Below, piece by piece: positions 10,409 through 50,480 of a stretch of DNA of 64,000 bases; position 1 is the first letter of the stretch, and each line of letters begins with the position of its first letter. The stretch is taken from the sequence record DRR378314_1512; one strand, 5' to 3'. Under the pieces are notes generated by a model, which ran no database searches, had not been told where the DNA came from, and saw only the letters and a program-made list of their open reading frames with translations. A program made the position numbers and the translations under genes.

Positions 10409-10419
10409 GCCCTTATTCT

Positions 10420-11103: not shown

Positions 11104-11104
11104 A

Positions 11105-12034: not shown

Positions 12035-12096
12035 GGCTGGCGATCTCCTTGGGTGATTGTTCTGATTCGACGGTACCAATAAAGTGAAAGCGCATC

Positions 12097-23352: not shown

Positions 23353-23361
23353 CTTTAATGC

Positions 23362-23376
23362 ATCACTTTTTCTGAT
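23362..23376. promoter_or_regulatory. LysR T-N11-A box
   Basis: ATCA-N7-TGAT in the divergent LysR/enolase intergenic region. Confidence 0.45.
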
Positions 23377-23448
23377 GATCTCGCGATAAAATAATATTTG
23401 AAATGATAATCTGGTCAAGGCAGGCTTCTGTCACTGGCAGGGGGTTCA

Positions 23449-24582
23449 ATGGGCGATCTGACGCAGAAAATTATTGGGTACGATCTTTGGCACCTTGAAT
23501 TGCCGGTCACGTCCCGTCGGGATCACGGCATCGGGTCGGTCGAAGGTGTCTGCGAAGTGGTTGTTCTGCGACTGCGGTCCGAAGACGGCAGAGAGGGGTT
23601 TGGCGAAGCCTCGCCTTGGTCCGTTTTCACCGGTACACCCGAAGCCACCTATGCTGCCCTCGATCGCTATTTGCGGCCCCTTGTCGTTGGGGCCAAAGTC
23701 GGTGAGCGTTCCGCAATCATGGCGCGGGCGGCCCATGCAGTGGCACACTGCACCGAGGCCAAAGCGGCATTGGAAACGGCATTGTTGGATCTTGCCGGCA
23801 GGATCGGCGGAGTTCCTGTCTGGTCCCTTCTGGGCGGACGGTGCCGGGAGGCCATTCCGCTCAGCTGTTCGATTGCGAACCCGGATTTTACGCAAGACAT
23901 CGAATTGCTGGCGCGATTGCAGGCGGATGGTGTTGGGATCGTAAAGCTCAAGACCGGGTTCAAGGACCACGCTTTCGACATCATGCGGCTGGAGTATCTT
24001 GCACAGAATCACCCGGATTTCTCAGTCCGTGTGGACTATAACCAAGGGCTCAGCATCGAGGACGCACCGGCGCGGGTTCGTGACGTCGCACAGTTCACCC
24101 CGGATTTCATCGAACAACCCGTACGCGCTCATCATTTTGGTATGATGCGCAACCTGAGGCAAATGATCGATGTGCCGCTGCTGGCTGACGAAAGTGTCTT
24201 TGGCCCTGAAGATATGGAGCGGGCGGCACGTGAAGGTATTTGTGACGGGGTTTCCGTGAAAATCATGAAGTCGGGCGGCCCGACACGCGGGCAGACTGTT
24301 GCCCGTATCGCTGCCGCGCATGGTCTGACAGCCTATGGCGGGGATATGTTCGAAGCCGGATTAGCACATCTGGCGGGCGCACACATGATCGCTGCAACAC
24401 CTGAAATCACATTAGGCTGTGAGTTTTATCAAGCTTCCTACTTCCTGAAAGAAGATATTTTGGAAGAGCCTTTCCAGATAAGCGATGGCCAGGTCGTGGT
24501 GCCTGAAGGGCCCGGTCTGGGCAGCAGGCCCGATCTGTCCAAGCTGGAGCATTATGCAATAACCAAGGCGGTGGCGGCGTGA
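23449..24582 (+). CDS. Enolase superfamily, MLE subgroup protein (probable racemase/epimerase)
   Basis: [43 protein letters not shown]. Confidence 0.9.
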
Positions 24583-25829
24583 GCGGCAAAAAGACCATAG
24601 TCATCATTGGCGCGGGGATCGTTGGCGTTTCTGCTGCGGTTTGGCTGCAACGTGACGGTCACGATGTAACCCTGATCGATAAGGCGGGGCCGGGTGAAGG
24701 CACCTCGCACGGCAACGGGGGCGTATTGGCATCCTGTTCGATTGTTCCAGTGACAGTGCCGGGGCTGCTGAGAAAAGCGCCCGGAATGCTTCTCAGCCCG
24801 TCGCAGCCTTTGTTTCTGAAATGGGGGTACCTTCCAAAGTTGATCCCGTGGATGACGCGCTATTTGAGCCATGCAAATACTGCAGATGTCGGGCGCATAG
24901 CTTCGGCTTTGACACCTGTCATTGGCGACAGTCTGAACGATCACAAAGCACTGGCCGATGGCACAGGGGCCGAAAAATGGATCGTGCCATCCGACTACTT
25001 GTTTCTGTACAAAGATAGGGCTCACTACGAAGACGATGCGTTTGGATGGGGCGTCCGGCGCAGGAACGGGTTCACATGGGACGAGTTGGAAGGCCCCGCC
25101 TTTCACGCCTATGATCCCGTTTATAGTGAAGATATCGGCTTTGCGGCGAAACTCTCGGATCATGGCCATATCACGGATCCAGGTCGTTATGTCAAAGATC
25201 TGGCGGCACATGTGGAAGCAAACGGAGGCACCATTCTGCGTGCCGCTGTCGATGATGTGGTTCAAGAGAATGGTAAAGCAACCGGCGTTCGTGCAGGTGG
25301 CGAAACAATTGCATGTGACACCGTGATCGTAACTGCGGGCGTCTGGTCTGGACCTCTGGCCAAGCGTTTGGGCGTTTCTGTTCCCCTTGAAAGCGAACGC
25401 GGCTATCATCTTGAACTTGTAGAGCCTTCTGCCACGCCACGCAGTCCTGTCATGGTGGTTTCGGGCAAATTTGTCGCGACACCGATGGACGGGCGCATTC
25501 GGCTGGCGGGCATCGTGGAATTTGGTGGGCTTGATGCGCCGCCGTCTCGCGCGCCATTTGAACTGATGCGCAAGAACGCCCGGATGGCCTTCCCGGGTTT
25601 GACTTGGAAGGAGGAAGTGGAATGGATGGGGCACCGCCCTGCACCGACTGACTCGATCCCGATCATTGGTGAGGCTCCGGGTATCAACGGTGCATATATG
25701 GGCTTTGGCCATCACCATATCGGCCTGACAGGCGGGCCAAAAACGGGGAGACTTCTTGCGCAAATGATTGCGGGCAGAACCCCGAACACGGACATGAGCG
25801 TCTACGCACCCTCACGGTTCGCAACATAA
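24579..25829 (+). CDS. FAD-dependent D-amino acid dehydrogenase (DadA family)
   Basis: [37 protein letters not shown]. Confidence 0.88.
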
Positions 25830-25880
25830 AAACGGTTGCAGAGAAATATCGGCAACTCGACATTCAACAGGGAGAAGATA

Positions 25881-26858
25881 ATGAAGAAATTGACAAGCCT
25901 TCTGGCGGCAACCGCGCTGACAGCTGCCGCAGCCGCACCGGCGATGGCCGAGAAATGGGACATGCCGATGGCCTATTCGGCATCAAATTTCCACTCGGCC
26001 ACGGGCGCCGAATTCGCCAAATGCGTGACCACCGGTACAGGTGGTGAGATTGAAATCGTCACGCATCCCTCGGGCTCTCTGTTCAAGGGGGGCGATATCA
26101 AGCGCGCGATCCAAACCGGGCAGGCCCCGATTGGTGAGCGTTTGTTATCCGGTCATCAGAACGAAAACGCGCTGTTCGGGTTTGACTCGATTCCGTTTCT
26201 GGCAACGTCATTTGATGATAGCGCCAAGCTTTGGGATGCGGCCAAACCTTCGATCGAAAAGCTGTTGGCTGAACAGAACCTGACCCTGCTTTATGCAGTG
26301 CCATGGCCGCCTCAGGGCCTTTACTTCAAGGACGAGGTGAACTCGGTCGCTGAAATGGAAGGCATCAAGTTCCGGTCCTACAACAACGCCACGTCGCGGT
26401 TGGCCGAACTTACGGGGATGCTCCCGGTCACAATCGAGGCAGCCGAAATCAGCCAAGCTTTTGCAACCGGTGTGGCGGATTCCATGGTGTCCTCCGGCTC
26501 AACCGGCTATGACCGCAAGGTTTGGGAAAGCCTGAATTACTTCTATGAAGTAGATGCATGGCTGCCGCGCAACTACGTAATGGTGAATTCGGATGTCTGG
26601 GCTGGTGTTTCGGATGCCAGCAAGAACGTCATCAAGGGTTGTGCAGAACTGGCCGAATATGCCGGAAACTGGCGTGCCAAGGAATATACCGGCTTCACGC
26701 TGCAGGGTCTGCGCGATGGCGGTATGACTGTTGGTCCAGCGTCCGAGCAGATGACGAATGAGCTGAAAGAGATCGGCGTCACCATGACCAATGAATGGCT
26801 TGAAGCCGCTGGTGACGAAGGCAAAGCCATCGTCGATGCGTTCAACTCTTCTCAGTAA
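25881..26858 (+). CDS. TRAP transporter substrate-binding protein (DctP family)
   Basis: Signal peptide; WPPQGLY, GIKFRSYN (conserved Arg); start at ATG 25881. Confidence 0.92.
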   Translation: MKKLTSLLAATALTAAAAAPAMAEKWDMPMAYSASNFHSATGAEFAKCVTTGTGGEIEIVTHPSGSLFKGGDIKRAIQTGQAPIGERLLSGHQNENALFGFDSIPFLATSFDDSAKLWDAAKPSIEKLLAEQNLTLLYAVPWPPQGLYFKDEVNSVAEMEGIKFRSYNNATSRLAELTGMLPVTIEAAEISQAFATGVADSMVSSGSTGYDRKVWESLNYFYEVDAWLPRNYVMVNSDVWAGVSDASKNVIKGCAELAEYAGNWRAKEYTGFTLQGLRDGGMTVGPASEQMTNELKEIGVTMTNEWLEAAGDEGKAIVDAFNSSQ

Positions 26859-26868
26859 CGACTGAGTA

Positions 26869-26899
26869 ATGGGCGGCGGGCACCTCTGCCGCCCATTTT
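26869..26899 (+). terminator. Stem-loop after dctP
   Basis: ATGGGCGGC-10 nt-GCCGCCCAT followed by TTT. Confidence 0.6.
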
Positions 26900-26929
26900 G
26901 CACTCGATCAAAACTCAAGCGGGGACGGT

Positions 26930-27463
26930 ATGGCGGCACTACGTGGGCTTCGGTCTGTACTGGATTTCATCTATCAGGCAGCGGGCGTTCTGGCCGCACT
27001 TAGCCTGATTGCCATTTTATTGCTCATCGTGGTCCAAATGCTGGCCCGCTGGACCGGAGAGGTTTTTCCGGGTGCGCCGGATTACGCCGGCTATGCGATG
27101 GCCGCTGCGTCCTTTCTGGCGTTTGCGAATGCCCTGAACCGGGGCAGCCACATCCGGGTTTCCATTCTTTTGAATTCGGTTCCTGATGGCTTTCGCCGAA
27201 TTCTTGAAATCTGGTGTTTTGCCATTGGTTCTGCCGTCATGTGGTATTTCTGCTGGTATGCATATCGCTTCGTGTTCTGGAGCTGGAAGTTCAACGACAT
27301 AAGTCAGGGGCAGGACAAAACCGCCCTTTGGATACCGCAATCAACCATGCTGATTGGCGCGATAATCCTTGCAATCGCGCTGACGGATCATCTGTTCCAC
27401 GTCCTATTCAAAGGTGACCATCGTATCACCCGCGATCTGGCCGATCAGAGCCACGGAGAATAA
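26930..27463 (+). CDS. TRAP transporter small permease (DctQ)
   Basis: Four TM segments; GSHIRVSIL. Confidence 0.9.
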   Translation: MAALRGLRSVLDFIYQAAGVLAALSLIAILLLIVVQMLARWTGEVFPGAPDYAGYAMAAASFLAFANALNRGSHIRVSILLNSVPDGFRRILEIWCFAIGSAVMWYFCWYAYRFVFWSWKFNDISQGQDKTALWIPQSTMLIGAIILAIALTDHLFHVLFKGDHRITRDLADQSHGE

Positions 27464-27467
27464 GAGC

Positions 27468-28781
27468 ATGGAAAACATATCCGTCATCATCCTCTTTCTC
27501 TTCGTCCTATTCACGCTTTTGGGCTCTGGCGTTTGGGTCGGGTTGGCTTTGATGGGCGTCGCCTGGGTCGGGATGGAGCTGTTTACCACGCGCCCCGTGG
27601 GTGATGTGATGATCACGACCATCTGGTCATCGTCCTCTTCCTGGACTCTGACCGCCCTGCCGATGTTCATTTGGATGGGTGAGATCCTGTATCGAACGCG
27701 ATTATCAGAGGACATGTTCAAAGGCTTGTCGCCATGGATGGCACCGCTGCCCGGAGGGTTGGTTCATACGAATATTGTGGGCTGTACAGTGTTTGCTGCG
27801 GTCTCAGGGTCCTCTGCGGCAACCCTGACCACGGTTGGAAAGATGTCGATCCCGGAACTGCGCAAGCGCAACTACCCTGAACGTATGATCATCGGCACGC
27901 TGACAGGGGCGGCCACGCTGGGTCTGATGATCCCGCCGTCGCTGACGTTGATCGTCTATGGCGTGACGATCAATGAATCGATCACCAAACTGTTCTTTGC
28001 CGGTATTCTACCTGGCCTCGTGCTGGCGGCGATGTTCATGGGGTATGTCGCGATCTATTCCAAGATTGGCAAAGACTGGAACCCAAACGATGAGGGTAAG
28101 CTGACATTCTCTGAGAAGGTCAGAAACTCTCGGTTCCTATTGCCCGTTATTCTGCTGATCACGGTAGTGATCGGATCCATGTATCTGGGCTATGCCACAG
28201 CGACCGAGGCCGCCGCTTTCGGCGTGATCGGGAGCCTGTTACTGGCCGCAGGACAGGGTTCATTGAATTGGAAGACATTCACCGAAAGCCTGATGGGCGC
28301 GACCCGTACCAGCGCAATGATCGCGCTGATCTTGGCAGGTGCCGCGTTCCTGTCTTTGTCGATGGGCTTCACCGGTTTGCCACGCGGGCTTGCTGACCTG
28401 ATTGCGGGGTGGGAGCTGACGCGGTTCGAACTGCTGATGGTCCTTTTGGTTTTCTATGTCATTCTGGGTTGCTTCCTTGATGGGATTTCCTCGGTCGTGC
28501 TGACCATGGCTGTTGTCGAACCGATGATCCGCGACGCAGGGATCGATCTGATCTGGTTCGGTATCTTCATCGTGGTCGTCGTCGAGATGGCGCAGATCAC
28601 CCCGCCCATCGGTTTCAACCTGTTCGTGATGCAGGGGATGACCAACCATGAGATGAGCTATATTGCGCGCGCCGCAATTCCGATGTTCCTGATCATGGTG
28701 CTGATGGTGTTCGTGCTGATCTGGTTCCCGGAACTGGCTACGTGGTTGCCTGAGAACCTGCGTCAGAGCCCCGGTGGGTAG
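27468..28781 (+). CDS. TRAP transporter large permease (DctM)
   Basis: ALPMFIWMG, VSGSSAAT, LMIPPS, ATATEAAA, ITPPIGFNLFV. Confidence 0.93.
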   Translation: MENISVIILFLFVLFTLLGSGVWVGLALMGVAWVGMELFTTRPVGDVMITTIWSSSSSWTLTALPMFIWMGEILYRTRLSEDMFKGLSPWMAPLPGGLVHTNIVGCTVFAAVSGSSAATLTTVGKMSIPELRKRNYPERMIIGTLTGAATLGLMIPPSLTLIVYGVTINESITKLFFAGILPGLVLAAMFMGYVAIYSKIGKDWNPNDEGKLTFSEKVRNSRFLLPVILLITVVIGSMYLGYATATEAAAFGVIGSLLLAAGQGSLNWKTFTESLMGATRTSAMIALILAGAAFLSLSMGFTGLPRGLADLIAGWELTRFELLMVLLVFYVILGCFLDGISSVVLTMAVVEPMIRDAGIDLIWFGIFIVVVVEMAQITPPIGFNLFVMQGMTNHEMSYIARAAIPMFLIMVLMVFVLIWFPELATWLPENLRQSPGG

Positions 28782-28787
28782 CGGGCA

Positions 28788-29720
28788 TTGAACCCTTTCC
28801 ACCTTGCAGCACGACACGGCCCTTACGTATTGATTTTGGGGTTGGTGGCTGGCCTCTTGCTGCCGGGACTGGCCGAACCAATGCGACCGTTTTTGCCGCC
28901 CTTGGTCATGATCTTGTTGTTTTTGACGCTGCTTCGAATGAAGCCGGGTGCCATCGTGGGCTCGCTAACCGATCTGCGACAGGTCGCAGGCACGATTTTG
29001 GCCTTCCAACTGGCTATGCCCTTGCTTGTGGCTGCGGTGGGATTTGCCGCTGGCTGGAGCAACGCTCCGGTTTTTCTATCGCTTTTGATCGTGGCCGCTG
29101 CGCCTTCGATTTCCGGCAGCCCGAATATGTGCCTAATGATGGGGTATCCTGCGGAATATGCGATGCGTCTGGTCGTGGTTGGAACTGCTGTTTTGCCTTT
29201 TACCGCCCTGCCAATCTTCTGGTTGATGCCAGAATTGGGTGACATCCAGGCTGTCCTGATGACCTCGCTTCGCCTATTTCTTACGATCGTAATCGCAATT
29301 CTTGCAGCGGTCGCATTGCGCCGAACCGTGCTTCGCGAACCATCACAGTCGACGCTTATAAATCTGGAAGGTGCAGCGACAATCACGCTTGCGGTTTTTG
29401 TGGTTGGATTAATGCCATCTGTGAGTGCAACCGCTCTTCAAGAGCCCGCAGTCGCGCTGTTCTGGATCGTATTTGCCTGCCTGATCAATTTTGGCGCTCA
29501 GGTTGTTTCTTTTCATCTGACGCGAAGCAGGCTGCCCACTGCCGAGGCAATTGCAGTTTCTTTGATTGCTGGAAACCGAAACACCGCAATATTCTTTGTG
29601 GCGTTGCCGCCTGAAGTGACCGCACCCATTATGGTGTTTATCGGCGCCTATCAGATTCCGATGTACCTAACGCCTTTGATCATGCGCCGGCTTTATCTGC
29701 AGAAAAGTTCAATCGGATGA
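28788..29720 (+). CDS. Membrane protein, bile acid:Na+ symporter-like
   Basis: About 10 TM helices; AAAPSISGSP and AGNRN motifs; TTG start. Confidence 0.65.
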   Translation: MNPFHLAARHGPYVLILGLVAGLLLPGLAEPMRPFLPPLVMILLFLTLLRMKPGAIVGSLTDLRQVAGTILAFQLAMPLLVAAVGFAAGWSNAPVFLSLLIVAAAPSISGSPNMCLMMGYPAEYAMRLVVVGTAVLPFTALPIFWLMPELGDIQAVLMTSLRLFLTIVIAILAAVALRRTVLREPSQSTLINLEGAATITLAVFVVGLMPSVSATALQEPAVALFWIVFACLINFGAQVVSFHLTRSRLPTAEAIAVSLIAGNRNTAIFFVALPPEVTAPIMVFIGAYQIPMYLTPLIMRRLYLQKSSIG

Positions 29721-29775: not shown

Positions 29776-30702
29776 TCAGCCGGTTTCGTCGACCGCTTCA
29801 CTAAGCCACTTGAACACAAGCTTTGCGCGATCGGATGAGGTGTTGTGTAATTTCACGTAGAAATCCAACTGCGATGATGTGGTCTGCGGCAATAGCCTGA
29901 CCAGTTTCCCCGATTTGATCAGGTCCGAGGTCAGACCCTCCCAGCCCAGAACCGCGCCCATATCGTCCTGGGCGGCCTGAAGGGCAATCGTGTAGTTGTT
30001 GACACGATGTGCCGAATTCAGCGGGCCGTCATATCCCAGCTTGCGGGTCCACGCGCGCCAGTCAGTCCAGCCGGTGTCTGGAGCATCAAGATGGATAAGG
30101 GGCACGCGCGCGAAATCCTCAACGCGTTCGATGGGATTGTGTTCCGCGAACCGGGGGCTGCACAATGCCATGATGTTGTCGTGAAACAGCGTCTTGAAGA
30201 TGCCCGTTTCACGACTGGAATCGCCATAGTGAATGCTCAGATCGCATCTCGAAGTATCGATGCCGAGGTCAGTTACTACCTGCGTCACGGAAACATGTCC
30301 GTGACGCTTCCAGAACTGGGCAAGACGCGGCGTGAGCCAGAGTGAACTGACAGCCGTGGTCGAGCGGATTGTAACGCCTTTTCTGTCATACTGGCGGCGC
30401 AACTGCCCAAGGGCTTCACTGATGCCTTCAAGACCACGTTGCAACGCGACAAGCAGATAAGCGCCGCTTTCGGTCAGTTCCACGCCGCGATGATGGCGCA
30501 GAAACAGCGCGCATTGCAGCTCATTCTCAAGCGCTTTGACCTGATGGCTGATCGCGGCGGGCGTGACGTTAAGTTCTTCGGCGGCCGTCTTGAAGCTCAC
30601 ATGCCGCGCGGCAGCTTCGAAGCTGATCAGCGAACTTAACGGCGGAAGGTCATATGGACGGTTGAGCAAGATGGTTTGACCTGTGATGGTATGATGAGTC
30701 AA
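29776..30702 (-). CDS. LysR family regulator (GcvA-like)
   Basis: LPPLSSLISFEAAARHVSFKTAAEELNVTPAAISHQVKALE. Confidence 0.93.
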   Translation of the reverse strand: MTHHTITGQTILLNRPYDLPPLSSLISFEAAARHVSFKTAAEELNVTPAAISHQVKALENELQCALFLRHHRGVELTESGAYLLVALQRGLEGISEALGQLRRQYDRKGVTIRSTTAVSSLWLTPRLAQFWKRHGHVSVTQVVTDLGIDTSRCDLSIHYGDSSRETGIFKTLFHDNIMALCSPRFAEHNPIERVEDFARVPLIHLDAPDTGWTDWRAWTRKLGYDGPLNSAHRVNNYTIALQAAQDDMGAVLGWEGLTSDLIKSGKLVRLLPQTTSSQLDFYVKLHNTSSDRAKLVFKWLSEAVDETG

Positions 30703-30731
30703 TGATATACGAGCTACTCGTCGCAGGTTGG

Positions 30732-30746
30732 CTTAGCTCACCTTAT
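30732..30746. promoter_or_regulatory. GcvA-type LysR box
   Basis: CTTAG-N5-CTTAT in the divergent intergenic region. Confidence 0.4.
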
Positions 30747-30944
30747 GCAACATGAATCTTTTTGCAATTGCTTCCCAACAGTTCAAGATGAAAATTTCAG
30801 ACAATCGTTTGAGACGCGATCCATGTGTGATCAAGCAGCAAACCCAAGCCCTTGGGGGCGGGTACCGAGCAAATTACACATGTTGGTCTTCCGTCGCCCA
30901 CTGCGATCACCGGTTGGTTGAGCACAATTTGAAGGAGCTTCAGA

Positions 30945-33398
30945 ATGCAGTCACATGCGAAAGTCGTGGTTGTTGGGGGAGGCTGCGTCGGGGCATCAAT
31001 CCTCTACGGGTTGACCGAGCATGGATGTTCCGATGCGGTCATGCTTGAGCGGACTACGCTGACCTCGGGCTCGACCTGGCATGCGGCGGGGCTGTTGGTG
31101 ACCTTTGTACGCTCTCACAACGTGTCGAAGATGACGATGGAAACCATCCGCATCTATAGTGAAGTGGAAAGGAAGGTGGGCAGCTCTGTCGGGCTGCGAA
31201 AGGTTGGCCAGTTGAGGGTGGCCAACACCGAAAAGCGCTGGGATGAATTCCAATCCTATATTTCGATCGCAGAGGCCGCAGGCGTACCCTGTAAGTTGCT
31301 GACACCGGAAGAGATTGCCGAAGTCCACCCGTTGTTGAACCAGAGCCCGGACATTCGCGGCGGTATCCTGCACACTGAAGACGGTTACGTGAACCCGGCA
31401 GATATCACCATGGCCTTGGCCAAGCTAGCGCGCGACGCGGGGGCCAAGGTGTACCAGAACACTGAAGCTCAGGCTTATGAAAAGCTTGATAATGGCCACT
31501 GGAAAGTAACAACCAATCAGGGTGAGATCACGTGTGAGCACCTGATCTTTGCCACCGGTAATTATGCCCGCGAAAACGCACGCCGCGTGGGGTTGGATCT
31601 GCCCTGTATTCCAATCGTTCACCAATACTGGACGACCGAGACAGTGCCGCTGCTAAAAGAGCGACGGGCGCAAGGTCTGCCAGAATTCCCGATCCTGCGA
31701 GATGAGGATTACGGGGCGTATCTGCGCGAAGATGTGGGGGGCATCCAGTTCGGGCCCTATGAATTTACCAAAGACCTCAAACTGTTTGCTGAAGATCGCG
31801 TGCCACCGGAATTTGGCGCGGATCTGCTGCCCGAGGATTTCGATGCAGTGGAAACCCAATGGGAGCGTGCCATCGAACGGGTGCCCACTTTGGGTGAGGT
31901 CGGCATCAAGGCCAATACCCGCGGTCCATTCCAAATGACACCGGACGAGCTGCCTCTGGCCGGTCCCGCACCCGGGCATGAGAACCTGTGGCTAGCCGAA
32001 GGCATGCCCGGCGGTATTCTGTGGGGCGGTACCGTTGGCAACCGTTTGGCCAAGTGGATCGTCAACGGCAATCCCGGCATGGACATGTCGGAACTCGACC
32101 CGCGCCGGTTCTCGGATTACGCCTCCAAACGCTGGACCATGGACAAAGTGCGCGAAACCTGGGGCACCCACATGGACGCACATGTGCCGGGTGAGGATTT
32201 TCCGGATGCGCGACCAATGAAAACTGTGGGCTCATACGACCTGCTGACTGCACAAGGCGCGGTCTGGACCAGCTTCAATGGCTACGAATTCCCGCGCTGG
32301 TTTGCCAATTCACCAGAAGAGGCGATCCCCGAACACGGCTTTCGCCGCACCAATCATATGGAACTGGTGCAGGAAGAAGTGCGCCGTACCCGCGAAGAGG
32401 CGGGTTTCATCGAGATGTCGCCGATGACCAAGTTCACTGTGCGTGGACCGGGGGCTGCACAGTGGTTGGACAGCATCATGGCCAACAAACTGCCGAAAGT
32501 GGGCCGCATGACCCTGTCGCTGATGCTGAACGACAATGGGGGCATGGATGCGGAATACACTATCGTGCGCTACGACGAGGATGACTTCTATCTGATCTCA
32601 ACCCCAAACTGGCGTGCCTACAATTGGGACCAGCTGCTGCGCGTGCTACCGCGTGACGGGTCAGTTGTGATCGAGGATATCTCAGAGCAATTGGGCGTGA
32701 TCGCGTTGGCCGGACCAAAGGCCCGTGAAATCCTGCAACCGCTGACCGACAACGACCTTTCGAATGCAGCCTTTCCGTGGCTTTCGGCGCAAATTGGTGA
32801 GGTGGGCTATGCCAAAGGCGTGCATCTGCTGCGTGTCTCTTACACCGGTGAGTTAGGGTGGGAGTTGCACCACTCGGTCGGGTATAATCGCCATCTTGTC
32901 GACTTGCTGTTGAAGGTCGGTGTCAAACCGTTCGGCCTTGAGGCGCTGGAGTCGATGCGCCTCGAAAAATCCTATCGCGCCATCAATCGCGAGATTTGCA
33001 AAGACTTGACCCCTTATGAGGCTGATCTCGATCGCTTCGTTGCCATGACCGAAAAGATTGGTGGGCAGGTGGCCGAGCGTGAGTTCGTCGGCAAAGCAGC
33101 ACTTTTGAAGCAGAAGGAAGAGGGCAACTATAACCGTTTGGTAACGCTGAAACTGCCCTTCAGCGACACCTCGGTGATGTTCGACGAGGGCGTGTATGCC
33201 GATGGTAGGTTGATCGGGCGCGTCACCTCGGGTGGATTTTCCTATTACTGTAACCACGACATCGCGATGGCGTTGGTGCCGCAAGAAATGACGGCTCCGG
33301 GCACCAAGATGCAGGTTTTGATCCACAATGAATTGCGCGATGCCCAAGTGATTGATGTCTGCGCCGTTGACCCCACCAGCGCCCGTGCGCGCACCTGA
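30945..33398 (+). CDS. FAD/THF-dependent oxidoreductase, dimethylglycine dehydrogenase-like (DAO + GcvT domains)
   Basis: VGGGCVG, TSGSTWHAAG (covalent-FAD His motif), RVSYTGELGWE, SMRLEKSY, GRVTSGG. Confidence 0.92.
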   Translation: MQSHAKVVVVGGGCVGASILYGLTEHGCSDAVMLERTTLTSGSTWHAAGLLVTFVRSHNVSKMTMETIRIYSEVERKVGSSVGLRKVGQLRVANTEKRWDEFQSYISIAEAAGVPCKLLTPEEIAEVHPLLNQSPDIRGGILHTEDGYVNPADITMALAKLARDAGAKVYQNTEAQAYEKLDNGHWKVTTNQGEITCEHLIFATGNYARENARRVGLDLPCIPIVHQYWTTETVPLLKERRAQGLPEFPILRDEDYGAYLREDVGGIQFGPYEFTKDLKLFAEDRVPPEFGADLLPEDFDAVETQWERAIERVPTLGEVGIKANTRGPFQMTPDELPLAGPAPGHENLWLAEGMPGGILWGGTVGNRLAKWIVNGNPGMDMSELDPRRFSDYASKRWTMDKVRETWGTHMDAHVPGEDFPDARPMKTVGSYDLLTAQGAVWTSFNGYEFPRWFANSPEEAIPEHGFRRTNHMELVQEEVRRTREEAGFIEMSPMTKFTVRGPGAAQWLDSIMANKLPKVGRMTLSLMLNDNGGMDAEYTIVRYDEDDFYLISTPNWRAYNWDQLLRVLPRDGSVVIEDISEQLGVIALAGPKAREILQPLTDNDLSNAAFPWLSAQIGEVGYAKGVHLLRVSYTGELGWELHHSVGYNRHLVDLLLKVGVKPFGLEALESMRLEKSYRAINREICKDLTPYEADLDRFVAMTEKIGGQVAEREFVGKAALLKQKEEGNYNRLVTLKLPFSDTSVMFDEGVYADGRLIGRVTSGGFSYYCNHDIAMALVPQEMTAPGTKMQVLIHNELRDAQVIDVCAVDPTSARART

Positions 33399-33413
33399 TC
33401 GGGAGGAATTGAG

Positions 33414-34934
33414 ATGGCAGAAGCAAAAGCACGCTCAGGCCGAAGCGGTGGACGCGCGGCACGGATTCAAGCCCGTACCAACCCGGCCCCGGTCTACCTG
33501 ACGACGTTAAATCGCAAGATCGGCCCGATTGATTTGCTCGGCCCGGAGGGTGTCGAAAAGATCCACAACGCGGCAATGACGATCCTGGAAACCACAGGGA
33601 TCGAGTTTCGCGATCCGCTCGCTCTGGCTGACTGGAAGAAGTATGGCGCGGATGTGCAGGGCGAACGGGTCCGCATCGGACGCGAGATGCTGATGGACCT
33701 GATCTCGGCCGTACCTTCGGAATGGGGCTATGCGGCGCGCAATCCGGATCGCTCACTGAGGGTAGGGCACCAGCATTCGGTATTCGCCAACGCCTATGGC
33801 GCGCCTTTTGTTTATGGACTGGATGGGGTGCGCCGCCCGTCGGTGTTGGAGGATGCGCAAAACTTCTTCAAGCTCAGCCAGATGAGCCAGTCGATGATGG
33901 TGCCCGGTATCCTACCCGTAGAACCGCAGGATGTTCCGGTTCCGCTGCGCCATCTGGAACTTGTCCACGCCGCGCTGACGCTGACTGACAAGCCTATCAA
34001 GGGCTCTGTCCTGTCAGAGCAAGCGGCGTTGGATTCAGTTGAGATGGCCCGCATCGTGTTCGGCGCGGACTTCGTTGACGAAAATGTCGTGATGGCCGCC
34101 TTGTTGAACTGCAACACTCCGCTGGTCTGGGATGAGACCATGCTGCAAAGCTTGCGTGTCTATGCCGCTGCCAACCAGCCCTGTCTGCTGTCGCCCTTTG
34201 TGCTGGCAGGGGCCAGCACGCCCGCCAGCCCGCAGGGAGGTGTCGCGTTGCTGATCGCAGAATCGCTGGCGGGTATGGCCTATAGCCAGATTATCCGGCG
34301 CGGCGCACCGATGGTGTTGGGTGTGGCGATCATGGGCGTTTCGATGAAGACAGGTGCACCGATGATGGGCTCTCCGGAACCTGGTCTGATGAACTTGCTG
34401 GTGGGCCAAATGGCGCGGTTCTACGGGGTGCCCTGGCGGACCTGTACCATGTGGACCGGATCAAAGTCGCCGGACATGCAGGCCGCGTTCGATACCGCAA
34501 ACACCATGTGGCCGGTGCTGTTGGGTGGTGCGCACTATATTGTCCATGCGGCGGGCTTTCTTGAAGGTGCACTTGGGGTCAGCTACTCGAAATGGGTGCA
34601 GGACACTTTGCAGTTGGAGAACTTCCACCGTTTCTTCAGCGGTTTGCAGGATGAGGACCTGGGTTCGCTTCTAAGCGATATTGATCAGATTGGCCCCGGC
34701 GGGCATTTCTTGGGCACGGATCATACGCGCGAGAACCCGATGCATATGAACCACTTGCAAAACAATGACAGTTTTGAGCAGTGGGAAGCAGAAGGCTCAA
34801 AAACCGCAGAAACCGTTGGCACGGAAGAGGCGCAGCGTATGCTCAGCACCTATGTGCAGCCACCAATGCCGGACGATAAGCGCGGCGCATTGGATGAATT
34901 TGTCGCCAGAAAACGGGTGGAATACAGCGCCTGA
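33414..34934 (+). CDS. Trimethylamine methyltransferase (MttB) superfamily, non-pyrrolysine
   Basis: RSGRSGGRAAR N-terminus; VEPQDVP, NCNTPLVWD, GSPEP, SKSPDMQA, HAAGFLEG, GPGGHFLG; no in-frame amber codon. Confidence 0.9.
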   Translation: MAEAKARSGRSGGRAARIQARTNPAPVYLTTLNRKIGPIDLLGPEGVEKIHNAAMTILETTGIEFRDPLALADWKKYGADVQGERVRIGREMLMDLISAVPSEWGYAARNPDRSLRVGHQHSVFANAYGAPFVYGLDGVRRPSVLEDAQNFFKLSQMSQSMMVPGILPVEPQDVPVPLRHLELVHAALTLTDKPIKGSVLSEQAALDSVEMARIVFGADFVDENVVMAALLNCNTPLVWDETMLQSLRVYAAANQPCLLSPFVLAGASTPASPQGGVALLIAESLAGMAYSQIIRRGAPMVLGVAIMGVSMKTGAPMMGSPEPGLMNLLVGQMARFYGVPWRTCTMWTGSKSPDMQAAFDTANTMWPVLLGGAHYIVHAAGFLEGALGVSYSKWVQDTLQLENFHRFFSGLQDEDLGSLLSDIDQIGPGGHFLGTDHTRENPMHMNHLQNNDSFEQWEAEGSKTAETVGTEEAQRMLSTYVQPPMPDDKRGALDEFVARKRVEYSA

Positions 34935-34994
34935 AAAATCCAGAATGCGGGCGCTGACCTGCCCGTTTTCGAAACCCAAGAACCGGATTAACCA

Positions 34995-36008
34995 ATGACT
35001 GATAACTCTACGACGATGCTTTCACTCAACGAGGTCAGAGAGTTGGCCAAATCCGTCTTTGTGGCCGGGGGCATGGATGAACATGGCAGTGCGGTTCTGG
35101 CCGATCTCGTAAGGATGACAGAACGCGACGGGCCGCGTAGCCACGGATTAAGAATGCTGCCCGTTTACGCGCAAAGCTTTTCTTCAGGTTATGCCAACCC
35201 TACCGCCAATCCCAGCGTTGAACGGATCGCTACGGGTGTTTTGCGCGGGGATGGGGACAATGGCTATTACCAGATCGTGGCTGCCAAGGCGCGCGGCGAG
35301 CTTATTGCGATGGCGCACGAAAATGGGATCGCCGCGTTCGCCTGTTCCAATTGCCACCACTTGGGGGCGTTGCGGTTTGACACCAGTCCATTGGCCGAGG
35401 CTGGATTGGTGGCACTGGGTGTTGTGAATTCACTTGCCATGGTGGTGCCGCAAGGGGGGGTACGGCCCGTTTTCGGCACTAATCCGATGTCTTTTGCGTG
35501 CCCACGACTGGGGGGTGAGCCGGTTGTCTGGGACCAGGCCTCGTCAATGGTTGCGCTGATGGATATCAAGATGGCTGCCGCTGAAGGGCATGATCTGCCG
35601 CGTCCCGCCGGCCTCGACCCAGACAACCAGCCTACACATGATCCCAACGCCATTCTGGAAACCCGCAGTCTGCTGCCATTTGGCGAACACAAGGGGGCTG
35701 CGATCGCATTTCTGATCGAAATTCTTGGGGCCGCTCTGGCTGGCGGAACATTGTCCGTCGATAACGCCAATCGTGAGGCGCATGGCGCATTGAACATCAA
35801 GGGCGGTAACACGCTGATCGCGATTGATCCCGCGCGGTTCGGCAACGCAGCGTTCGAAGATTACGTTCAGCGTATCTGCGCCGAGATTGAAGGCAATGGG
35901 CAGGCGCGTGTTCCAGGGGATGGCAGATTGAAGAACCGCGCCGCCGCAGAGGCAAATGGCGTACGCGTCACTGCCGAGTTGATGGCGCAACTGCGCGAAC
36001 TGCAATAA
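34995..36008 (+). CDS. Ldh_2 family NAD(P)H oxidoreductase (DpkA/ProC2-like cyclic imine reductase candidate)
   Basis: RSHGL, HHLGAL, FGTNPMSFACP, FGEHKG, ARVPG. Confidence 0.85.
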   Translation: MTDNSTTMLSLNEVRELAKSVFVAGGMDEHGSAVLADLVRMTERDGPRSHGLRMLPVYAQSFSSGYANPTANPSVERIATGVLRGDGDNGYYQIVAAKARGELIAMAHENGIAAFACSNCHHLGALRFDTSPLAEAGLVALGVVNSLAMVVPQGGVRPVFGTNPMSFACPRLGGEPVVWDQASSMVALMDIKMAAAEGHDLPRPAGLDPDNQPTHDPNAILETRSLLPFGEHKGAAIAFLIEILGAALAGGTLSVDNANREAHGALNIKGGNTLIAIDPARFGNAAFEDYVQRICAEIEGNGQARVPGDGRLKNRAAAEANGVRVTAELMAQLRELQ

Positions 36009-36019
36009 AGGTACCAAGT

Positions 36020-37258
36020 ATGTCTCGGGTGGTTGTGATCGGTGGCGGTATCGTTGGGGTTTCCTGCGCACTGACGCTGCAGTCCAATGGGCACGACGTT
36101 ACTGTCGTGGAGCCGGGGCCTGTGGGTGAGGGCGCAAGCTGGGCTTCGTGCGGGTGTATCGCAGTGGGCGAGATTGTGCCTCTGTCGCAACCCGGGATGC
36201 TGATGAAGGTGCCGGGCTGGTTGCTGGATGCCGAGGCTCCGCTTTCTCTGCGCCCGGCCTCGGCCCTAAAGTTGCTGCCTTGGTTTGCGCGGTTTACGGC
36301 CAATGCAAGTCCTTCAAGAATGCGGGCGATAGCCGCCGATTTAGCACGGCTCACATTTGTCGCCACCGCAGATTTCAAGGCGCAGCTTGTTGATATTGGC
36401 CACCCGGACCTGTTGGTCGAGCGGCCGGTCATTAAGCTGTTCGACGACGATAATGACCTCGCCACAATGCGCGCAGCCTTTGATCTGGCGCGTGAATTGG
36501 GTTGCACAATTGACGAAATATCTGGTCATGAAGCGCATCAGATCGACGCCGCGATTGCACCCGATTTCAAACATGCCGCCCTGCTACGAGACTGGAGTTT
36601 CGTGACCGAACCAAAGTTGTTGGTCGAAACTCTGATGCGGAGCTTTGCCAACCGGGGCGGGATCGTTGTCACAGGAGCGGCCGTCGAATTTGCACGAGAT
36701 GATCGAACTGTCCAAAGCGTGCGACTTCAGAACGGACACACACTTGGCGCCGACGAATTTGTCATCGCTGCGGGAACGCAATCTCGGGTTTTGGCTAAGA
36801 AGCTAGGCGTTTCCCTGCAGATGGAAGGGGTAATCGGATATTCGACCGTTCTGTATGACAGTGGGATCAATCTGCGCCACACGGTGTTTTATGCAAAGGG
36901 CGGGTTTGGTATCACACCTTATCAGGATGCATTGGCCGTGGCCGGAACCGCGGAATTTGCAGACCTGAAGGCAGCGCCCAACTGGAACCGCGCTGATATA
37001 TTGGTCAAACGTGCACATCGCGTGTTGCCGGGCCTGAATATCGAGAAAACTGAACGCAGGATGGGCCGCCGTCCTTTCACACCGGACACGCGCCCGATCA
37101 TTGGTCGCAGCAGACGCTTGGCCAATGTTACTTTTGCCACGGGTCACGGTCAGCTTGGCCTGACATTGGGGGCCACTACAGCGCGGATTGTTGCAGATGT
37201 GATCGTGCGCAAGGCCCCGGACATCGATATTCAGGCCTTCAGCCCTGATCGGTTTTAG
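36020..37258 (+). CDS. FAD-dependent D-amino acid dehydrogenase (DadA family)
   Basis: IGGGIVG, GASWASCG, MGRRPFTPD, GHGQLGLTLG. Confidence 0.88.
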   Translation: MSRVVVIGGGIVGVSCALTLQSNGHDVTVVEPGPVGEGASWASCGCIAVGEIVPLSQPGMLMKVPGWLLDAEAPLSLRPASALKLLPWFARFTANASPSRMRAIAADLARLTFVATADFKAQLVDIGHPDLLVERPVIKLFDDDNDLATMRAAFDLARELGCTIDEISGHEAHQIDAAIAPDFKHAALLRDWSFVTEPKLLVETLMRSFANRGGIVVTGAAVEFARDDRTVQSVRLQNGHTLGADEFVIAAGTQSRVLAKKLGVSLQMEGVIGYSTVLYDSGINLRHTVFYAKGGFGITPYQDALAVAGTAEFADLKAAPNWNRADILVKRAHRVLPGLNIEKTERRMGRRPFTPDTRPIIGRSRRLANVTFATGHGQLGLTLGATTARIVADVIVRKAPDIDIQAFSPDRF

Positions 37259-39930: not shown

Positions 39931-40023
39931 CAGATTTGAGGATTCTGAAGCTTTGCCAGATTGCTCCACTCACAACTTCAAGGGTCAGTTTGCGCGCTTG
40001 ACCCGAAAATCGACAGGTTCGGC

Positions 40024-40770
40024 ATGACACAGCCCACCCCCATGATTGAAGTCACCAATCTGGATAAGTTCTATGGCGCTTTCCAAGCACTCAAGAACAT
40101 CGACCTAACTGTTCAACAGGGAGAGAAGGTGGTGATTTGCGGTCCGTCAGGATCGGGAAAATCCACGCTGATTCGGTGTTTCAACGGGTTGGAATGGCAT
40201 AACTCGGGCCGCCTCGTGATCGACGGGATCGAAGTTTATGACGGCGCAAAGGAAATCCGAGAACTGCGGCAGGAGGTTGGGATGGTTTTCCAGCAGTTCA
40301 ATCTGTTTCCGCATTTGACCGTGCTCGAAAATCTGATGATCGGACCGATGAAAGTTCGCAAGATCTCCAAGACACAGGCGGAAGAAACCGCGCGCAATTA
40401 TCTTGATCGTGTTCATATCCCCGAACAGGCTGAGAAGTACCCCGCGCAACTGTCGGGAGGACAACAACAACGCGTCGCCATCGCCCGGTCCTTGTGCATG
40501 GAAACCCGGATCATGCTGTTTGATGAGCCGACATCCGCACTTGATCCCGAGATGATCAATGAGGTGCTGGATGTGATGGTTGAGCTGGCCGAGACTGGCA
40601 TGACCATGGTCGTAGTCACACATGAGATGGGATTTGCCCGCAAGGTGGCCGATACCATGGTCTTCATGGAGGCCGGGCAGATTGTTGAAATTTCTCCCCC
40701 CGAACAGTTCTTTACCAACCCATCCAGCGAACGCTGCCGCCTGTTCCTGAACCAGATACTGGAACACTGA
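40024..40770 (+). CDS. Polar amino acid ABC transporter ATP-binding protein
   Basis: [50 protein letters not shown]. Confidence 0.95.
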   Translation: MTQPTPMIEVTNLDKFYGAFQALKNIDLTVQQGEKVVICGPSGSGKSTLIRCFNGLEWHNSGRLVIDGIEVYDGAKEIRELRQEVGMVFQQFNLFPHLTVLENLMIGPMKVRKISKTQAEETARNYLDRVHIPEQAEKYPAQLSGGQQQRVAIARSLCMETRIMLFDEPTSALDPEMINEVLDVMVELAETGMTMVVVTHEMGFARKVADTMVFMEAGQIVEISPPEQFFTNPSSERCRLFLNQILEH

Positions 40771-40771
40771 C

Positions 40772-41614
40772 ATGACCGATCTGGGCATAACTCGGGGAAA
40801 GGGACAGCCGTTGCCGAAACCGCCTTTTTACAAGCGGTTTTTTGACTCAACATTGGTTTCGATCGCGATTTACGCGGTTGTTATCGGACTGATTGCCTAT
40901 GGGTCGTATGCTGGCGCGCAGGGCATGGGATATAACTGGCAGTGGTACCGGGTTCCGCAATTCCTTTACCGCAATACCGAGATCGGGTTCGAATGGGGCG
41001 AAATTCCCATCGGGCTGGTCGCCACGATCAAGTTATCCGTCACTTCGTTCCTGCTGGCCACTGCCATCGGGTTGCTGGTCGCATTGTTGCGGCTGTCGGG
41101 ATTGGTGATTGGGTCCGCTGTCGCCGTTGCATTCCTTGAACTGATCCGAAACATCCCCCTGCTGGTTCTGCTCTATCTGTTCTATTATGTGCTGGGCCCG
41201 ATCTTCAGTTTTGATAGATATTCCGCCAGTATTCTGACGCTGGCGATTTTTCACTCGGCCCTGATATCCGAGATTCTGCGGGCTGGAATCAATGCGATTC
41301 CGACCGGTCAATGGGAGGCGGCCAAATCCATCGGGATGACCCCCTATCAGACCTACAAGTATATTATCCTACCTCAATCTGTTCGTTTTATGCTGCCACC
41401 CATGACAGGTGAGGTGGTTCACCTGATCAAGTCTTCGGCAATCGTCAGCGTCATTGCTGTGGCTGAGCTTACCACCTTTGGGCGCAACATCATTTCGGAC
41501 ACCTACATGAGTTTTGAAATCTGGTTCACCATCGCATTGGTCTATCTGGTGGTGACCCTGATCCTGTCGATCGGCGTAAGTCATCTGGAGAAGAAATATG
41601 CTGTCGACCAATAA
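40772..41614 (+). CDS. Polar amino acid ABC transporter permease
   Basis: ELIRNIPLLV, SEILRAGI, GQWEAA, LIKSS. Confidence 0.93.
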   Translation: MTDLGITRGKGQPLPKPPFYKRFFDSTLVSIAIYAVVIGLIAYGSYAGAQGMGYNWQWYRVPQFLYRNTEIGFEWGEIPIGLVATIKLSVTSFLLATAIGLLVALLRLSGLVIGSAVAVAFLELIRNIPLLVLLYLFYYVLGPIFSFDRYSASILTLAIFHSALISEILRAGINAIPTGQWEAAKSIGMTPYQTYKYIILPQSVRFMLPPMTGEVVHLIKSSAIVSVIAVAELTTFGRNIISDTYMSFEIWFTIALVYLVVTLILSIGVSHLEKKYAVDQ

Positions 41615-41650
41615 CCACAAGAAATTAACCGGACAACAAGGAGAACCAAG

Positions 41651-42484
41651 ATGAAGCTATCTCGCAGAATGCTCGGGGCAGCCCTGGGCGCGGTCGTGGC
41701 AACAGGCATGGCGACCTCAGGCTGGGCCCAAAGCGCGACCCAGGATCTGTCCCGCGAAAGTGTGATTGAAACGATCAAACAGGATGGAGTGATCCGGATT
41801 GGTCTGTCGCTGTTCGTGCCATGGTCGATGCGCGACAAGAACGGTGATCTGATCGGCTTCGAACTGGATGTCGGGCGCAAGCTGGCCGAAGACATGGGCG
41901 TCGAGGTCGAATTTGTTCCGACCGCTTGGGATGGGATCATCCCGGCGCTTGTATCCGGTAATTTCGATGTGATCATCTCGGGGATGTCGGTGACCGCGCA
42001 GCGAAACCTGACAATCAACTTCACTGATCCTTATGCCTTCTCGGGCCTAGCTATTCTGGCCAACAAAGAGCTGACAGCGGATATGTCGCGCGAGGATCTG
42101 AACTCATCAGATGTTACCTTTGCGGCGCGTCGGGGTGCGACACCGGCAACCGTGATTGCCAAGGCGTTCCCCGAAGCCAACCTGTTACTGTTTGATGAGG
42201 ACGGCGCGTCAACCCAGGAAGTTCTGAATGGCAACGCCCACGCCACCATGGCGTCGCAACCAACCCCGAACCGTGAGGCCGGACGCAATCCTGAAACGCT
42301 GATAGTGCTTGAAGGAGAGCTGTTCGATCCACGTGGTGAGGCGTTTGGAATGCGCAAAGGTGATCCGGACGCGATGAACTTTTTCAACAACTGGATTGCA
42401 CAGAACTGGCGCTCTGGTTGGCTGAAAGAGCGCCATGATTACTGGTTTGCAACCGAAGAGTGGGCAGACCAGGTCGCCCAATAA
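41651..42484 (+). CDS. Polar amino acid ABC transporter substrate-binding protein (family 3)
   Basis: Signal peptide; GFELDV, WDGIIPAL, DVIISGMSVTAQR. Confidence 0.93.
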   Translation: MKLSRRMLGAALGAVVATGMATSGWAQSATQDLSRESVIETIKQDGVIRIGLSLFVPWSMRDKNGDLIGFELDVGRKLAEDMGVEVEFVPTAWDGIIPALVSGNFDVIISGMSVTAQRNLTINFTDPYAFSGLAILANKELTADMSREDLNSSDVTFAARRGATPATVIAKAFPEANLLLFDEDGASTQEVLNGNAHATMASQPTPNREAGRNPETLIVLEGELFDPRGEAFGMRKGDPDAMNFFNNWIAQNWRSGWLKERHDYWFATEEWADQVAQ

Positions 42485-42492
42485 TCAAACCA

Positions 42493-42519
42493 ACCGGGGG
42501 CGGGCCCACTGCCCCCGGT
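42493..42519 (+). terminator. Stem-loop after the SBP gene
   Basis: ACCGGGGGC...GCCCCCGGT inverted repeat, no T-run (likely stabiliser). Confidence 0.45.
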
Positions 42520-42523
42520 CCTG

Positions 42524-45941: not shown

Positions 45942-46015
45942 TTCCTGATTGCTTAGTGCTTCAAATGTAAGGCCGAGCGCTGCAACTAATCTATTTGAAA
46001 GTGATAATGGCTCAC

Positions 46016-46030
46016 ATTAGAGTGACTAAT
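46016..46030. promoter_or_regulatory. LysR box (GcvA-type)
   Basis: Perfect ATTAG-N5-CTAAT directly before the LysR ATG. Confidence 0.6.
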
Positions 46031-46960: not shown

Positions 46961-46970
46961 CCCTCCTTAT
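46956..46970. promoter_or_regulatory. Second copy of the LysR box upstream of the Rieske oxygenase
   Basis: ATTAG-N5-CTTAT overlapping the LysR stop codon. Confidence 0.45.
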
Positions 46971-47055
46971 ATTTAATATTACAATTCCGGCATGGCGTAT
47001 TGGACATGCGCTGCCATAATGCCCCCAGCCACCTGATTGATAAGGAGAGCAACCC

Positions 47056-48105: not shown

Positions 48106-48113
48106 ACTTCGAA

Positions 48114-48136
48114 GGGGGCCGGGTGACCCGGCCCCG
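48114..48136. terminator. Hairpin between the convergent Rieske and PhyH genes
   Basis: GGGGCCGGG-tga-CCCGGCCCC. Confidence 0.6.
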
Positions 48137-48140
48137 TCTC

Positions 48141-50466: not shown

Positions 50467-50480
50467 GAAAGGCCAGGATC

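Follow-up and report, generated by a model that had tools for sequence, protein, structure and literature searches.

Within the 64-kb stretch of DNA analysed here (sequence record DRR378314_1512; below, 'the window' is that whole stretch), five genes at 29776–37258 make up a divergent locus: on the minus strand a gene for a LysR-family regulator (29776–30702), and, 242 nt away on the plus strand, genes for a dimethylglycine dehydrogenase (DMGDH)-like flavoprotein with a C-terminal folate (GcvT) domain (30945–33398, 817 aa), a non-pyrrolysine methyltransferase of the MttB superfamily (33414–34934, 506 aa), a DpkA/LhpD-type reductase of the Ldh_2 family (34995–36008, 337 aa) and a DadA-like FAD dehydrogenase (36020–37258, 412 aa). 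The gaps within the plus-strand set are 15, 60 and 11 nt, and a convergent MATE gene overlaps its last member by 20 nt. Coordinates and domain profiles bear out the original prediction for this locus, of four co-oriented genes divergent from a GcvA-like LysR, and the enzyme identities that it assigned to the four genes proved correct by profile and PDB comparisons. On balance we read the locus as a LysR-controlled operon for the catabolism of proline betaine (stachydrine), perhaps also of close cyclic relatives, that would work without an oxygenase.

By its sequence the host of the window is a Ruegeria; its MttB recurs, at 99% identity, on a contig of an uncultured member of that genus. The nearest genome (G001), which has 55% of sampled words in common with the window, served as the comparison genome for genome-wide searches. 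In two complete Ruegeria genomes the four plus-strand genes (the module) and their neighbours lie on large non-mobilizable plasmids, of 512 kb in Ruegeria sp. SCSIO 43209 and 787 kb in R. conchae M340 (locus L185). Public records give the plasmid copies the generic names 'trimethylamine methyltransferase family protein', 'Ldh family oxidoreductase' and 'FAD-dependent oxidoreductase', and the MttB gene has been tagged with the Gene Ontology term 'methanogenesis'. A scan for promoters and terminators was uninformative, giving 3 promoter-like sites where chance predicts 4.1 ± 2.0 and 11 terminator-like sites where it predicts 9.3 ± 2.9.

Enzymes of the module

The first plus-strand gene encodes the full DMGDH-type architecture (Pfam DAO 204.4, FAO_M 49.5, GCV_T 225.1 and GCV_T_C 55.7 bits). 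Among PDB entries its product scored 512 bits to rat DMGDH, 501 bits to human DMGDH and 238.6 bits to the Arthrobacter dimethylglycine oxidase, and we take the flavoproteins of the module to be dehydrogenase-like rather than oxidase-like. The nearest genome has six DMGDH-like paralogs, among which the module copy is distinct (the others are 33–42% identical to it); thus the substrate of the module copy is not implied by its family.

The methyltransferase matches PF06253 at 554.7 bits, over profile positions 1–498 of 500. Its 506-codon frame contains no in-frame stop (amber), which makes it a non-pyrrolysine member of the superfamily, and it scored 407.8 bits to an uncharacterised Sinorhizobium meliloti structure (4yyc), 304.9 to MtgB and 88.6 to the pyrrolysine-containing MttB (7xcl). 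MtgB binds glycine betaine through Y97, R312, H348 and F356; Y97 and F356 are both of its cation-pi aromatics, and the acid-binding Arg (R312) and His (H348) are kept among superfamily members acting on acidic betaines (PMC13080624). In the window's protein Y97, R312 and H348 correspond to Y128, R342 and H378, and none of the three varies among the 63 orthologs. The position of F356 is taken by A386, with Ala in 61 of the 63, and a Phe stands four residues earlier (F382), likewise in 61. The kept Arg and His fit an acidic quaternary amine as substrate. The altered aromatic pair points weakly to a substrate other than glycine betaine, the argument being weak because the paralog L001 also lacks F356.

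When one genome per genus of the family was searched, MttB orthologs (72–99% identical) were found in 3 of 301 genomes, and a 40–48% identical paralog in 279. The subfamily of the window's protein, which we call clade A, is on this distribution narrow and specialised; in the nearest genome the window's protein is 40% identical to the widespread paralog and 25% to a third. With F356 not kept and the clade narrow, the protein probably falls outside the glycine betaine-specific MtgB type.

The original prediction had held that a grouping of the Ldh_2 protein (Pfam Ldh_2, 284.9 bits) with sulfolactate, ureidoglycolate or malate dehydrogenases would count against it. Scores against solved structures place the protein elsewhere, at 243.8 bits to DpkA of Pseudomonas syringae (1wtj/2cwf/2cwh) against 126.9 bits for the next best entry; ureidoglycolate dehydrogenase scored 99.6, sulfolactate dehydrogenase 93.3 and 'malate dehydrogenase' entries 88–96 bits. 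NCBIfam has no DpkA model, and all matches of the protein there were below cut-off. The alignment with DpkA is gapless over residues 3–336, and the SHG histidine H50 and the HH pair H121–H122 are kept, aligned with DpkA histidines; the family-invariant histidines near the nicotinamide are the equivalents of AllD His44 and His116 (PMC3527362). DpkA/LhpD enzymes are described, in the accessible part of PMC3958920, as reducing pyrroline-2-carboxylate (Pyr2C) and piperideine-2-carboxylate (Pip2C) strictly with NADPH, and as forming with FAD dehydrogenases a two-enzyme inversion of D-imino acids. The nearest genome has two Ldh_2 genes, the other being 35% identical to the module copy. The product of the last gene (Pfam DAO, 176.3 bits) was matched by NCBIfam models PRK00711 (D-amino acid dehydrogenase, its best named match; 190.5 bits, cut-off 383) and PRK12409 (131.8 bits, cut-off 494), and its best solved relatives are glycine oxidases, at no more than 83 bits.

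Recurrence in relatives and linkage to HpbD

A pattern scan, with one genome per species, gave 66 loci whose MttB is 66–99% identical to that of the window. Most are from Ruegeria, Leisingera, Aliiroseovarius, Roseovarius, Shimia, Thalassobius, Halocynthiibacter and Pelagimonas, joined by single records of Cohaesibacter, Pikeienuella, Pseudorhodobacter, Hyphomicrobiales and Sphingomonadaceae and by metagenome-assembled genomes. The same gene order recurs in these loci across many roseobacter genera, so that the arrangement is far beyond chance. A DMGDH-like gene lies directly upstream of MttB in all 59 loci that extend at least 2600 nt upstream. Among the 61 with at least 2600 nt downstream, DpkA and DadA orthologs both follow in 38, DpkA alone in 11 and DadA alone in 3 (49 and 41 of the 61 in total). 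Identity to the window's proteins is 66–99% for the core pair (DMGDH-like and MttB) and lower, 58–98%, for DpkA and DadA.

The regulator travels with the module: a LysR ortholog of at least 50% identity was present in 48 of the 58 loci with enough upstream DNA. The window's copy has Pfam domains HTH_1 (68.7 bits) and LysR_substrate (73.7 bits), and its best NCBIfam match was GcvA, at 217.3 bits below the cut-off of 288. Its true start is probably the ATG at 30654, giving a frame shorter than 29776–30702: in the long frame the helix-turn-helix domain starts only at residue 24, and the annotated length of the R. conchae ortholog is 882 nt. Between this gene and the module lies a conserved element (30733–30770, plus strand), in which a degenerate TTAG-N-TTAT box stands 13 nt upstream of TTTTTGCAATTG (30759–30770). 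Of 59 orthologous upstream regions, the window counted, 43 have the pattern TTTT[TC]NNAATTG at 75–212 nt before the DMGDH-like start codon, and most regions with a TTTTTGCAATTG-type element have ATTAG-N6-CTAAT, an interrupted palindrome of the LysR type, at a fixed distance before it. The surrounding sequence is otherwise divergent among relatives, and the element occurs in single copy in the window. It fits control by the divergent LysR and is a candidate operator or promoter.

Several of the loci continue, beyond the module, with genes for a BCCT transporter and a protein of the enolase superfamily. The enolase product scored 570.4 bits to HpbD of Paracoccus denitrificans (4e8g, 4izg, 4j1o) and 565.1 bits to HpbD of Pelagibaca bermudensis (2pmq), with the next family at 219.9 bits; all four structures are named as HpbD, the proline betaine racemase/4-hydroxyproline betaine 2-epimerase of the known pathway (PMC3950512). 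HpbD orthologs (71–85% identical to the copy in L062) lay within 10 kb of MttB in 12 of the 66 loci, covering Ruegeria, Pelagimonas, Aliiroseovarius, Cohaesibacter, Pseudorhodobacter and several metagenome-assembled genomes, and BCCT betaine transporters lay within 10 kb of the module in 6 of the 66. In eight of the twelve, HpbD lies downstream in the same orientation, immediately behind DadA, DpkA or BCCT, and three Ruegeria loci have it on the LysR side; 11 of the 12 have no other MttB near the module. No Rieske domain was found among 138 flanking open reading frames scanned (77 chosen from the 264 of 16 loci and 61 of the 81 from 8 loci, L017 lying outside the scan), and an HpbB1-like protein had no tblastn match in any of the 66 loci. 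The relatives thus support the original reading of the operon as one for cyclic amino-acid betaines, through the HpbD and BCCT genes beside it and the lack of a detected Rieske demethylase. The idea that HpbD and the DadA/DpkA pair are alternative means of stereoinversion was not supported, seven of the 12 HpbD loci having both DadA and DpkA.

HpbD has a second MttB partner in metagenomes. In the best 80 of 262 metagenome stretches encoding an HpbD relative, an MttB gene of another clade (clade B) stood beside HpbD in 30 (23 of the 40 stretches of at least 8 kb), an HpbB1-like Rieske gene in 5, and MttB and Rieske genes together in none. Clade B proteins are 75–83% identical to each other, 40–46% to the window's protein and 39–42% to the widespread paralog of the nearest genome; they match PF06253 at 702–719 bits and have Thr in place of Tyr128. 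Their clusters contain genes for GntR, a dihydrodipicolinate synthase (DHDPS)-like protein, an aldehyde dehydrogenase, MttB, in some a zinc alcohol dehydrogenase, HpbD, two short-chain dehydrogenases/reductases (SDRs) and a 443-aa DAO protein, with no DMGDH-like, DpkA or DadA orthologs. Examples are L124:4112-13914, L127, L130, L168 and L179 from metagenomes, and L065:11249-18229 and L067. A Rieske version exists in L166, where the same DAO, DHDPS and aldehyde dehydrogenase genes accompany a Rieske oxygenase instead of MttB. As in the HpbD-linked clade A loci, an MttB-family gene thus takes the place of a Rieske demethylase beside HpbD. A DHDPS-like deaminase and an aldehyde dehydrogenase form the exit of the hydroxyproline branch. 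Since clade B has these two genes and clade A has DpkA, clade B looks like the hydroxyproline betaine version, and clade A, with its putative Pyr2C reductase, like the proline betaine version.

A separate feature of HpbD neighbourhoods is a set of three genes that often comes after HpbD, for a zinc alcohol dehydrogenase, a second enolase-superfamily protein and an SDR (L016:2275-5638, L020:16473-20544, L108:6854-10938 and others). The second enolase is 34% identical to HpbD, and its L016 copy scored 494.7 bits to the uncharacterised structure 2ps2 and 251 to 4mgg.

A candidate route for proline betaine and its alternatives

From these families and their linkage we infer the following route. 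Proline betaine would be taken up by a carrier, in some relatives the BCCT protein, and MttB would move one of its N-methyl groups to the Co(I) of an MtgC-type corrinoid protein encoded elsewhere. An MtgD-type pterin-binding methyltransferase would hand that methyl to tetrahydrofolate (THF), with a RamA-type activase keeping the cobalt reduced. The DMGDH-like flavoprotein would oxidise the N-methyl of N-methylproline and its GcvT domain would trap it as methylene-THF, so that neither methyl would be freed as formaldehyde. The DadA-like dehydrogenase would convert D-proline to Pyr2C, which the DpkA-type enzyme would reduce with NADPH to L-proline for central metabolism; no step would use O2 as a substrate. 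The product of demethylation would probably be D-configured, by analogy with the known hydroxyproline betaine route through HpbD.

The cofactor machinery that this route would borrow is present in the nearest genome, which encodes a 232-aa protein with B12-binding_2 and B12-binding domains (MtgC-type), with a DUF1638 gene immediately after it, and a 353-aa pterin-binding protein (MtgD-type) with an adjoining RACo_C_ter activase (RamA-type). An MtgC-like protein was found in 29 of 31 sampled genomes of the family, at 77–100% identity. In Ruegeria pomeroyi, glycine betaine demethylation genetically requires the corrinoid protein MtgC and the pterin-binding methyltransferase MtgD, whose genes lie away from the MttB genes and are common to the split methionine synthase; RamA- and DUF1638-type proteins are also induced, and the multiple PF06253 paralogs have been proposed to serve other methylated compounds (PMC12478193). 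For Phaeobacter inhibens, the accessible part of bioRxiv 10.64898/2025.12.19.695462 reports a proven role for mtgB1 alone among four paralogs. By analogy, the MttB of the window may draw on such a distant, shared corrinoid system. Complex prediction for MttB (alignment A4) with the MtgC-like protein of the nearest genome (alignment A3) scored 0.09 and 0.04 against a mark of 0.32, which is no evidence either way.

Several observations weigh against the proline betaine route. Domain scans found no gene for a corrinoid protein, a pterin methyltransferase or an activase in the 64-kb window. An HpbD ortholog was found neither in the window nor in the nearest genome (best match 27% identical), so that this clue from context rests on the relatives; in one of these, L067, HpbD belongs to a neighbouring clade B MttB cluster, and in the 80 metagenome HpbD loci clade A was never found, clade B being the commoner partner of HpbD. 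The module is incomplete in 9 of the 61 loci, which have neither DpkA nor DadA. In DpkA, Arg314 and Arg315 bind the 2'-phosphate of NADPH (PMC3527362); their counterparts in the window's protein are G310 and R311, with K313 and R315 nearby, so that one of the two arginines is kept. The DadA-like protein is below every NCBIfam cut-off, and membership of the DAO family alone is established for it. Finally, were L-proline betaine the substrate of MttB, DadA and DpkA would be superfluous.

The module may, with the same mechanism, serve another ring betaine, such as 4-hydroxyproline betaine (betonicine/turicine) or pipecolate betaine (homostachydrine), the DadA-like protein oxidising the D-imino acid and the DpkA-type enzyme reducing pyrroline-4-hydroxy-2-carboxylate (Pyr4H2C) or Pip2C. 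We consider this unlikely, even though HpbD accepts hydroxyproline betaine as well as proline betaine (PMC3950512), the DpkA/LhpD enzymes, as the accessible part of PMC3958920 has it, reduce Pip2C and the 4S-hydroxy compound Pyr4SH2C besides Pyr2C, and the specificity of an MttB protein is not fixed by its sequence alone. Reduction of Pyr4H2C to hydroxy-L-proline would be an unproductive exit, and the DHDPS-like and aldehyde dehydrogenase genes that a hydroxyproline substrate would call for go with clade B, occurring in one or two of the 66 clade A loci (L065 and L076), both without HpbD. As for pipecolate, the module showed neither a pipecolate oxidase nor a gene of the lysine branch.

An acyclic betaine or N-methyl amino acid, of the glycine betaine or alanine type, has a lower probability, and we regard it as doubtful. 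MttB and the DMGDH-like protein would then take two methyls, and the DadA-like protein, or the DpkA-type enzyme in the role of an N-methyl-L-amino acid dehydrogenase, or both, would cleave the resulting monomethyl amino acid to methylamine and a 2-oxo acid. DpkA is indeed also described as an N-methyl amino acid dehydrogenase/imine reductase in the accessible parts of PMC6110843 and PMC6775277, the DadA-like protein has its best solved relatives among glycine oxidases, the regulator is GcvA-like, BCCT carriers transport glycine betaine too, and genes like those of the methylamine (N-methylglutamate) pathway lie in the window at 7661–12079. Against an acyclic substrate stands the linkage to HpbD, which is specific for proline-type betaines, and the equilibrium of DpkA-type enzymes, which favours reduction according to the accessible part of PMC3958920. 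Against glycine betaine in particular, clade A is rare (the 3 of 301 genomes above) while demethylation by MtgBCD is reported to be widespread (PMC12478193), and the nearest genome has other MttB paralogs.

Least probable, at a slim chance, is that two unrelated pairs merely adjoin, the DMGDH-like/MttB pair serving some quaternary amine and DpkA/DadA a separate salvage of D-proline or D-lysine: the core does stand without the second pair in the nine loci, and the second pair is the less conserved, but across many genera DpkA and DadA occur together in 38 of 61 loci, in every case immediately downstream and in the same orientation, here at gaps of 60 and 11 nt and with a terminator signal not above chance.

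Surrounding genes, known pathways and significance

Upstream of the module, window positions 22432–29720 hold a separate unit: a LysR gene (minus strand), an enolase-superfamily gene, a DadA-like DAO gene, a DctPQM transporter of the tripartite ATP-independent periplasmic type and a 310-aa frame without a family. The enolase scored 658.3 bits to an uncharacterised R. pomeroyi structure (3i6e); at 74.3 bits to 4e8g we rejected it as an HpbD. The DAO protein is 33% identical to the DadA-like protein of the module. We kept this unit out of the module because it adjoins it in close Ruegeria only, with pieces (DAO, LysR, a thiamine pyrophosphate enzyme, DctP) in three other loci (L053, L054 and L019). 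On the minus strand at 7661–12079, four genes with Gln-synt_C, Glu_synthase, GXGXG and GATase domains resemble what we take to be the gamma-glutamylmethylamide/N-methylglutamate methylamine route. A polar amino acid ABC transporter at 39961–43420, with ectoine-transporter-like subunits (EhuA 275.9, EhuD 137.3 and EhuC 123.7 bits, all below cut-off), is a possible uptake system, and it adjoins the module in L011, L013, L025 and L073 only. Genes at 45995–53592 encode a LysR, a VanA/DdmC-type Rieske oxygenase, a PhyH dioxygenase and SoxB-like (486.1 bits) and SoxA-like (1140.5 bits) proteins, by their families another cluster for N- or O-demethylation. Among structures, the product of its Rieske gene (47056–48105) is closest to DdmC (dicamba demethylase 3gb4, 146.7 bits), and no Stc2-type protein was among its 22 matches. 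Another Rieske gene lies at 59283–60686. Elsewhere, L056:5872-13507 encodes a 682-aa protein with Oxidored_FMN and Pyr_redox_2 domains, which we take to match the '2,4-dienoyl-CoA reductase' type of HpbA, beside another DMGDH-like gene and an MttB paralog that has diverged (316 bits, with 24% identity to the window's protein) and lacks the acid-binding Arg and His.

The nearest functional precedent in aerobic roseobacters is MtgBCD(E) of R. pomeroyi and P. inhibens, where further PF06253 paralogs are uncharacterised (PMC12478193 and the accessible part of bioRxiv 10.64898/2025.12.19.695462). Like it, the module has a PF06253 protein with no adjacent corrinoid gene, in an aerobic roseobacter, and the nearest genome has MtgC-, MtgD-, RamA- and DUF1638-type genes elsewhere. 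It differs in that its MttB belongs to another clade, is always paired with its own DMGDH-like gene, as a rule also with DpkA and DadA, and shows linkage to HpbD, not to glycine betaine genes. The anaerobe Eubacterium limosum has a proline betaine:corrinoid methyltransferase, MtpB (named in PMC12478193 and PMC13080624), which is of the same superfamily and would carry out the same reaction as we propose here, proline betaine to N-methylproline on a corrinoid, a likeness by description. E. limosum is an anaerobic acetogen with a dedicated corrinoid system, whereas here an aerobe would follow with further demethylation and ring inversion. The module reductase resembles Pseudomonas DpkA/LhpD, acting with an FAD D-amino acid dehydrogenase (PMC3527362 and the accessible part of PMC3958920), in its gapless alignment, kept histidines and adjacent DAO-family gene; it differs in identity (about 40–45%, by eye), in the replaced NADPH-phosphate Arg and in belonging to an operon for demethylation, not to a cluster for lysine or hydroxyproline.

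In the Hpb/Stc pathway of P. denitrificans, Rhodobacter sphaeroides, P. bermudensis and S. meliloti, the first demethylase is the Rieske enzyme HpbB1C1 and the second is HpbA, a flavoprotein of the '2,4-dienoyl-CoA reductase' type; genes for formaldehyde detoxification are induced, and P. denitrificans demethylates the L-form and cannot use D-proline (PMC3950512). The module shares with it the proposed substrates, the logic of two N-demethylations and, in the relatives counted above, the adjacent HpbD. It differs in that unrelated families, MttB and the DMGDH-like/GcvT fusion, replace both demethylases, with both methyls expected on folate, and in carrying the D-to-L inversion pair. The original statement that the module is unlike the Rieske-dependent hpb/stc pathway therefore holds for both demethylases, neither the Rieske HpbB1C1 nor an HpbA of the old yellow enzyme type being in the module. 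We found no paper that connects proline betaine, hydroxyproline betaine or HpbD with an MttB-family protein from aerobic Proteobacteria, in a search with most subscription journals outside it. The parts are known (MttB-family betaine methyltransferases, MtgBCD in aerobes, the HpbD pathway and the DpkA inversion), and within the literature so searched the new elements are their combination, the replacement of both Hpb demethylases and the linkage of two MttB clades to HpbD.

Taking the two clades together, we tentatively suggest that marine Alphaproteobacteria may have swapped the Rieske demethylases of the HpbD pathways for two MttB clades that use the corrinoid protein of the split methionine synthase. 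Clade A would take proline betaine to L-proline through D-intermediates, passing both methyls to folate without formaldehyde, and clade B would do likewise for hydroxyproline betaine; turnover would be B12-dependent, with O2 not a substrate.

Algae, plants and invertebrates commonly have proline betaine and hydroxyproline betaine as osmolytes, and to our knowledge the only worked-out aerobic route for them uses Rieske oxygenases and releases formaldehyde. If the reading of the module as a proline betaine operon is true, there would be a second, B12-dependent route that keeps both methyls as folate-bound one-carbon units, and one of the 'extra' MttB paralogs of roseobacters would have a function, which, once established, would correct many generic public annotations. 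The link between cobalamin supply and osmolyte cycling would then reach beyond glycine betaine, to the turnover of marine proline betaine.

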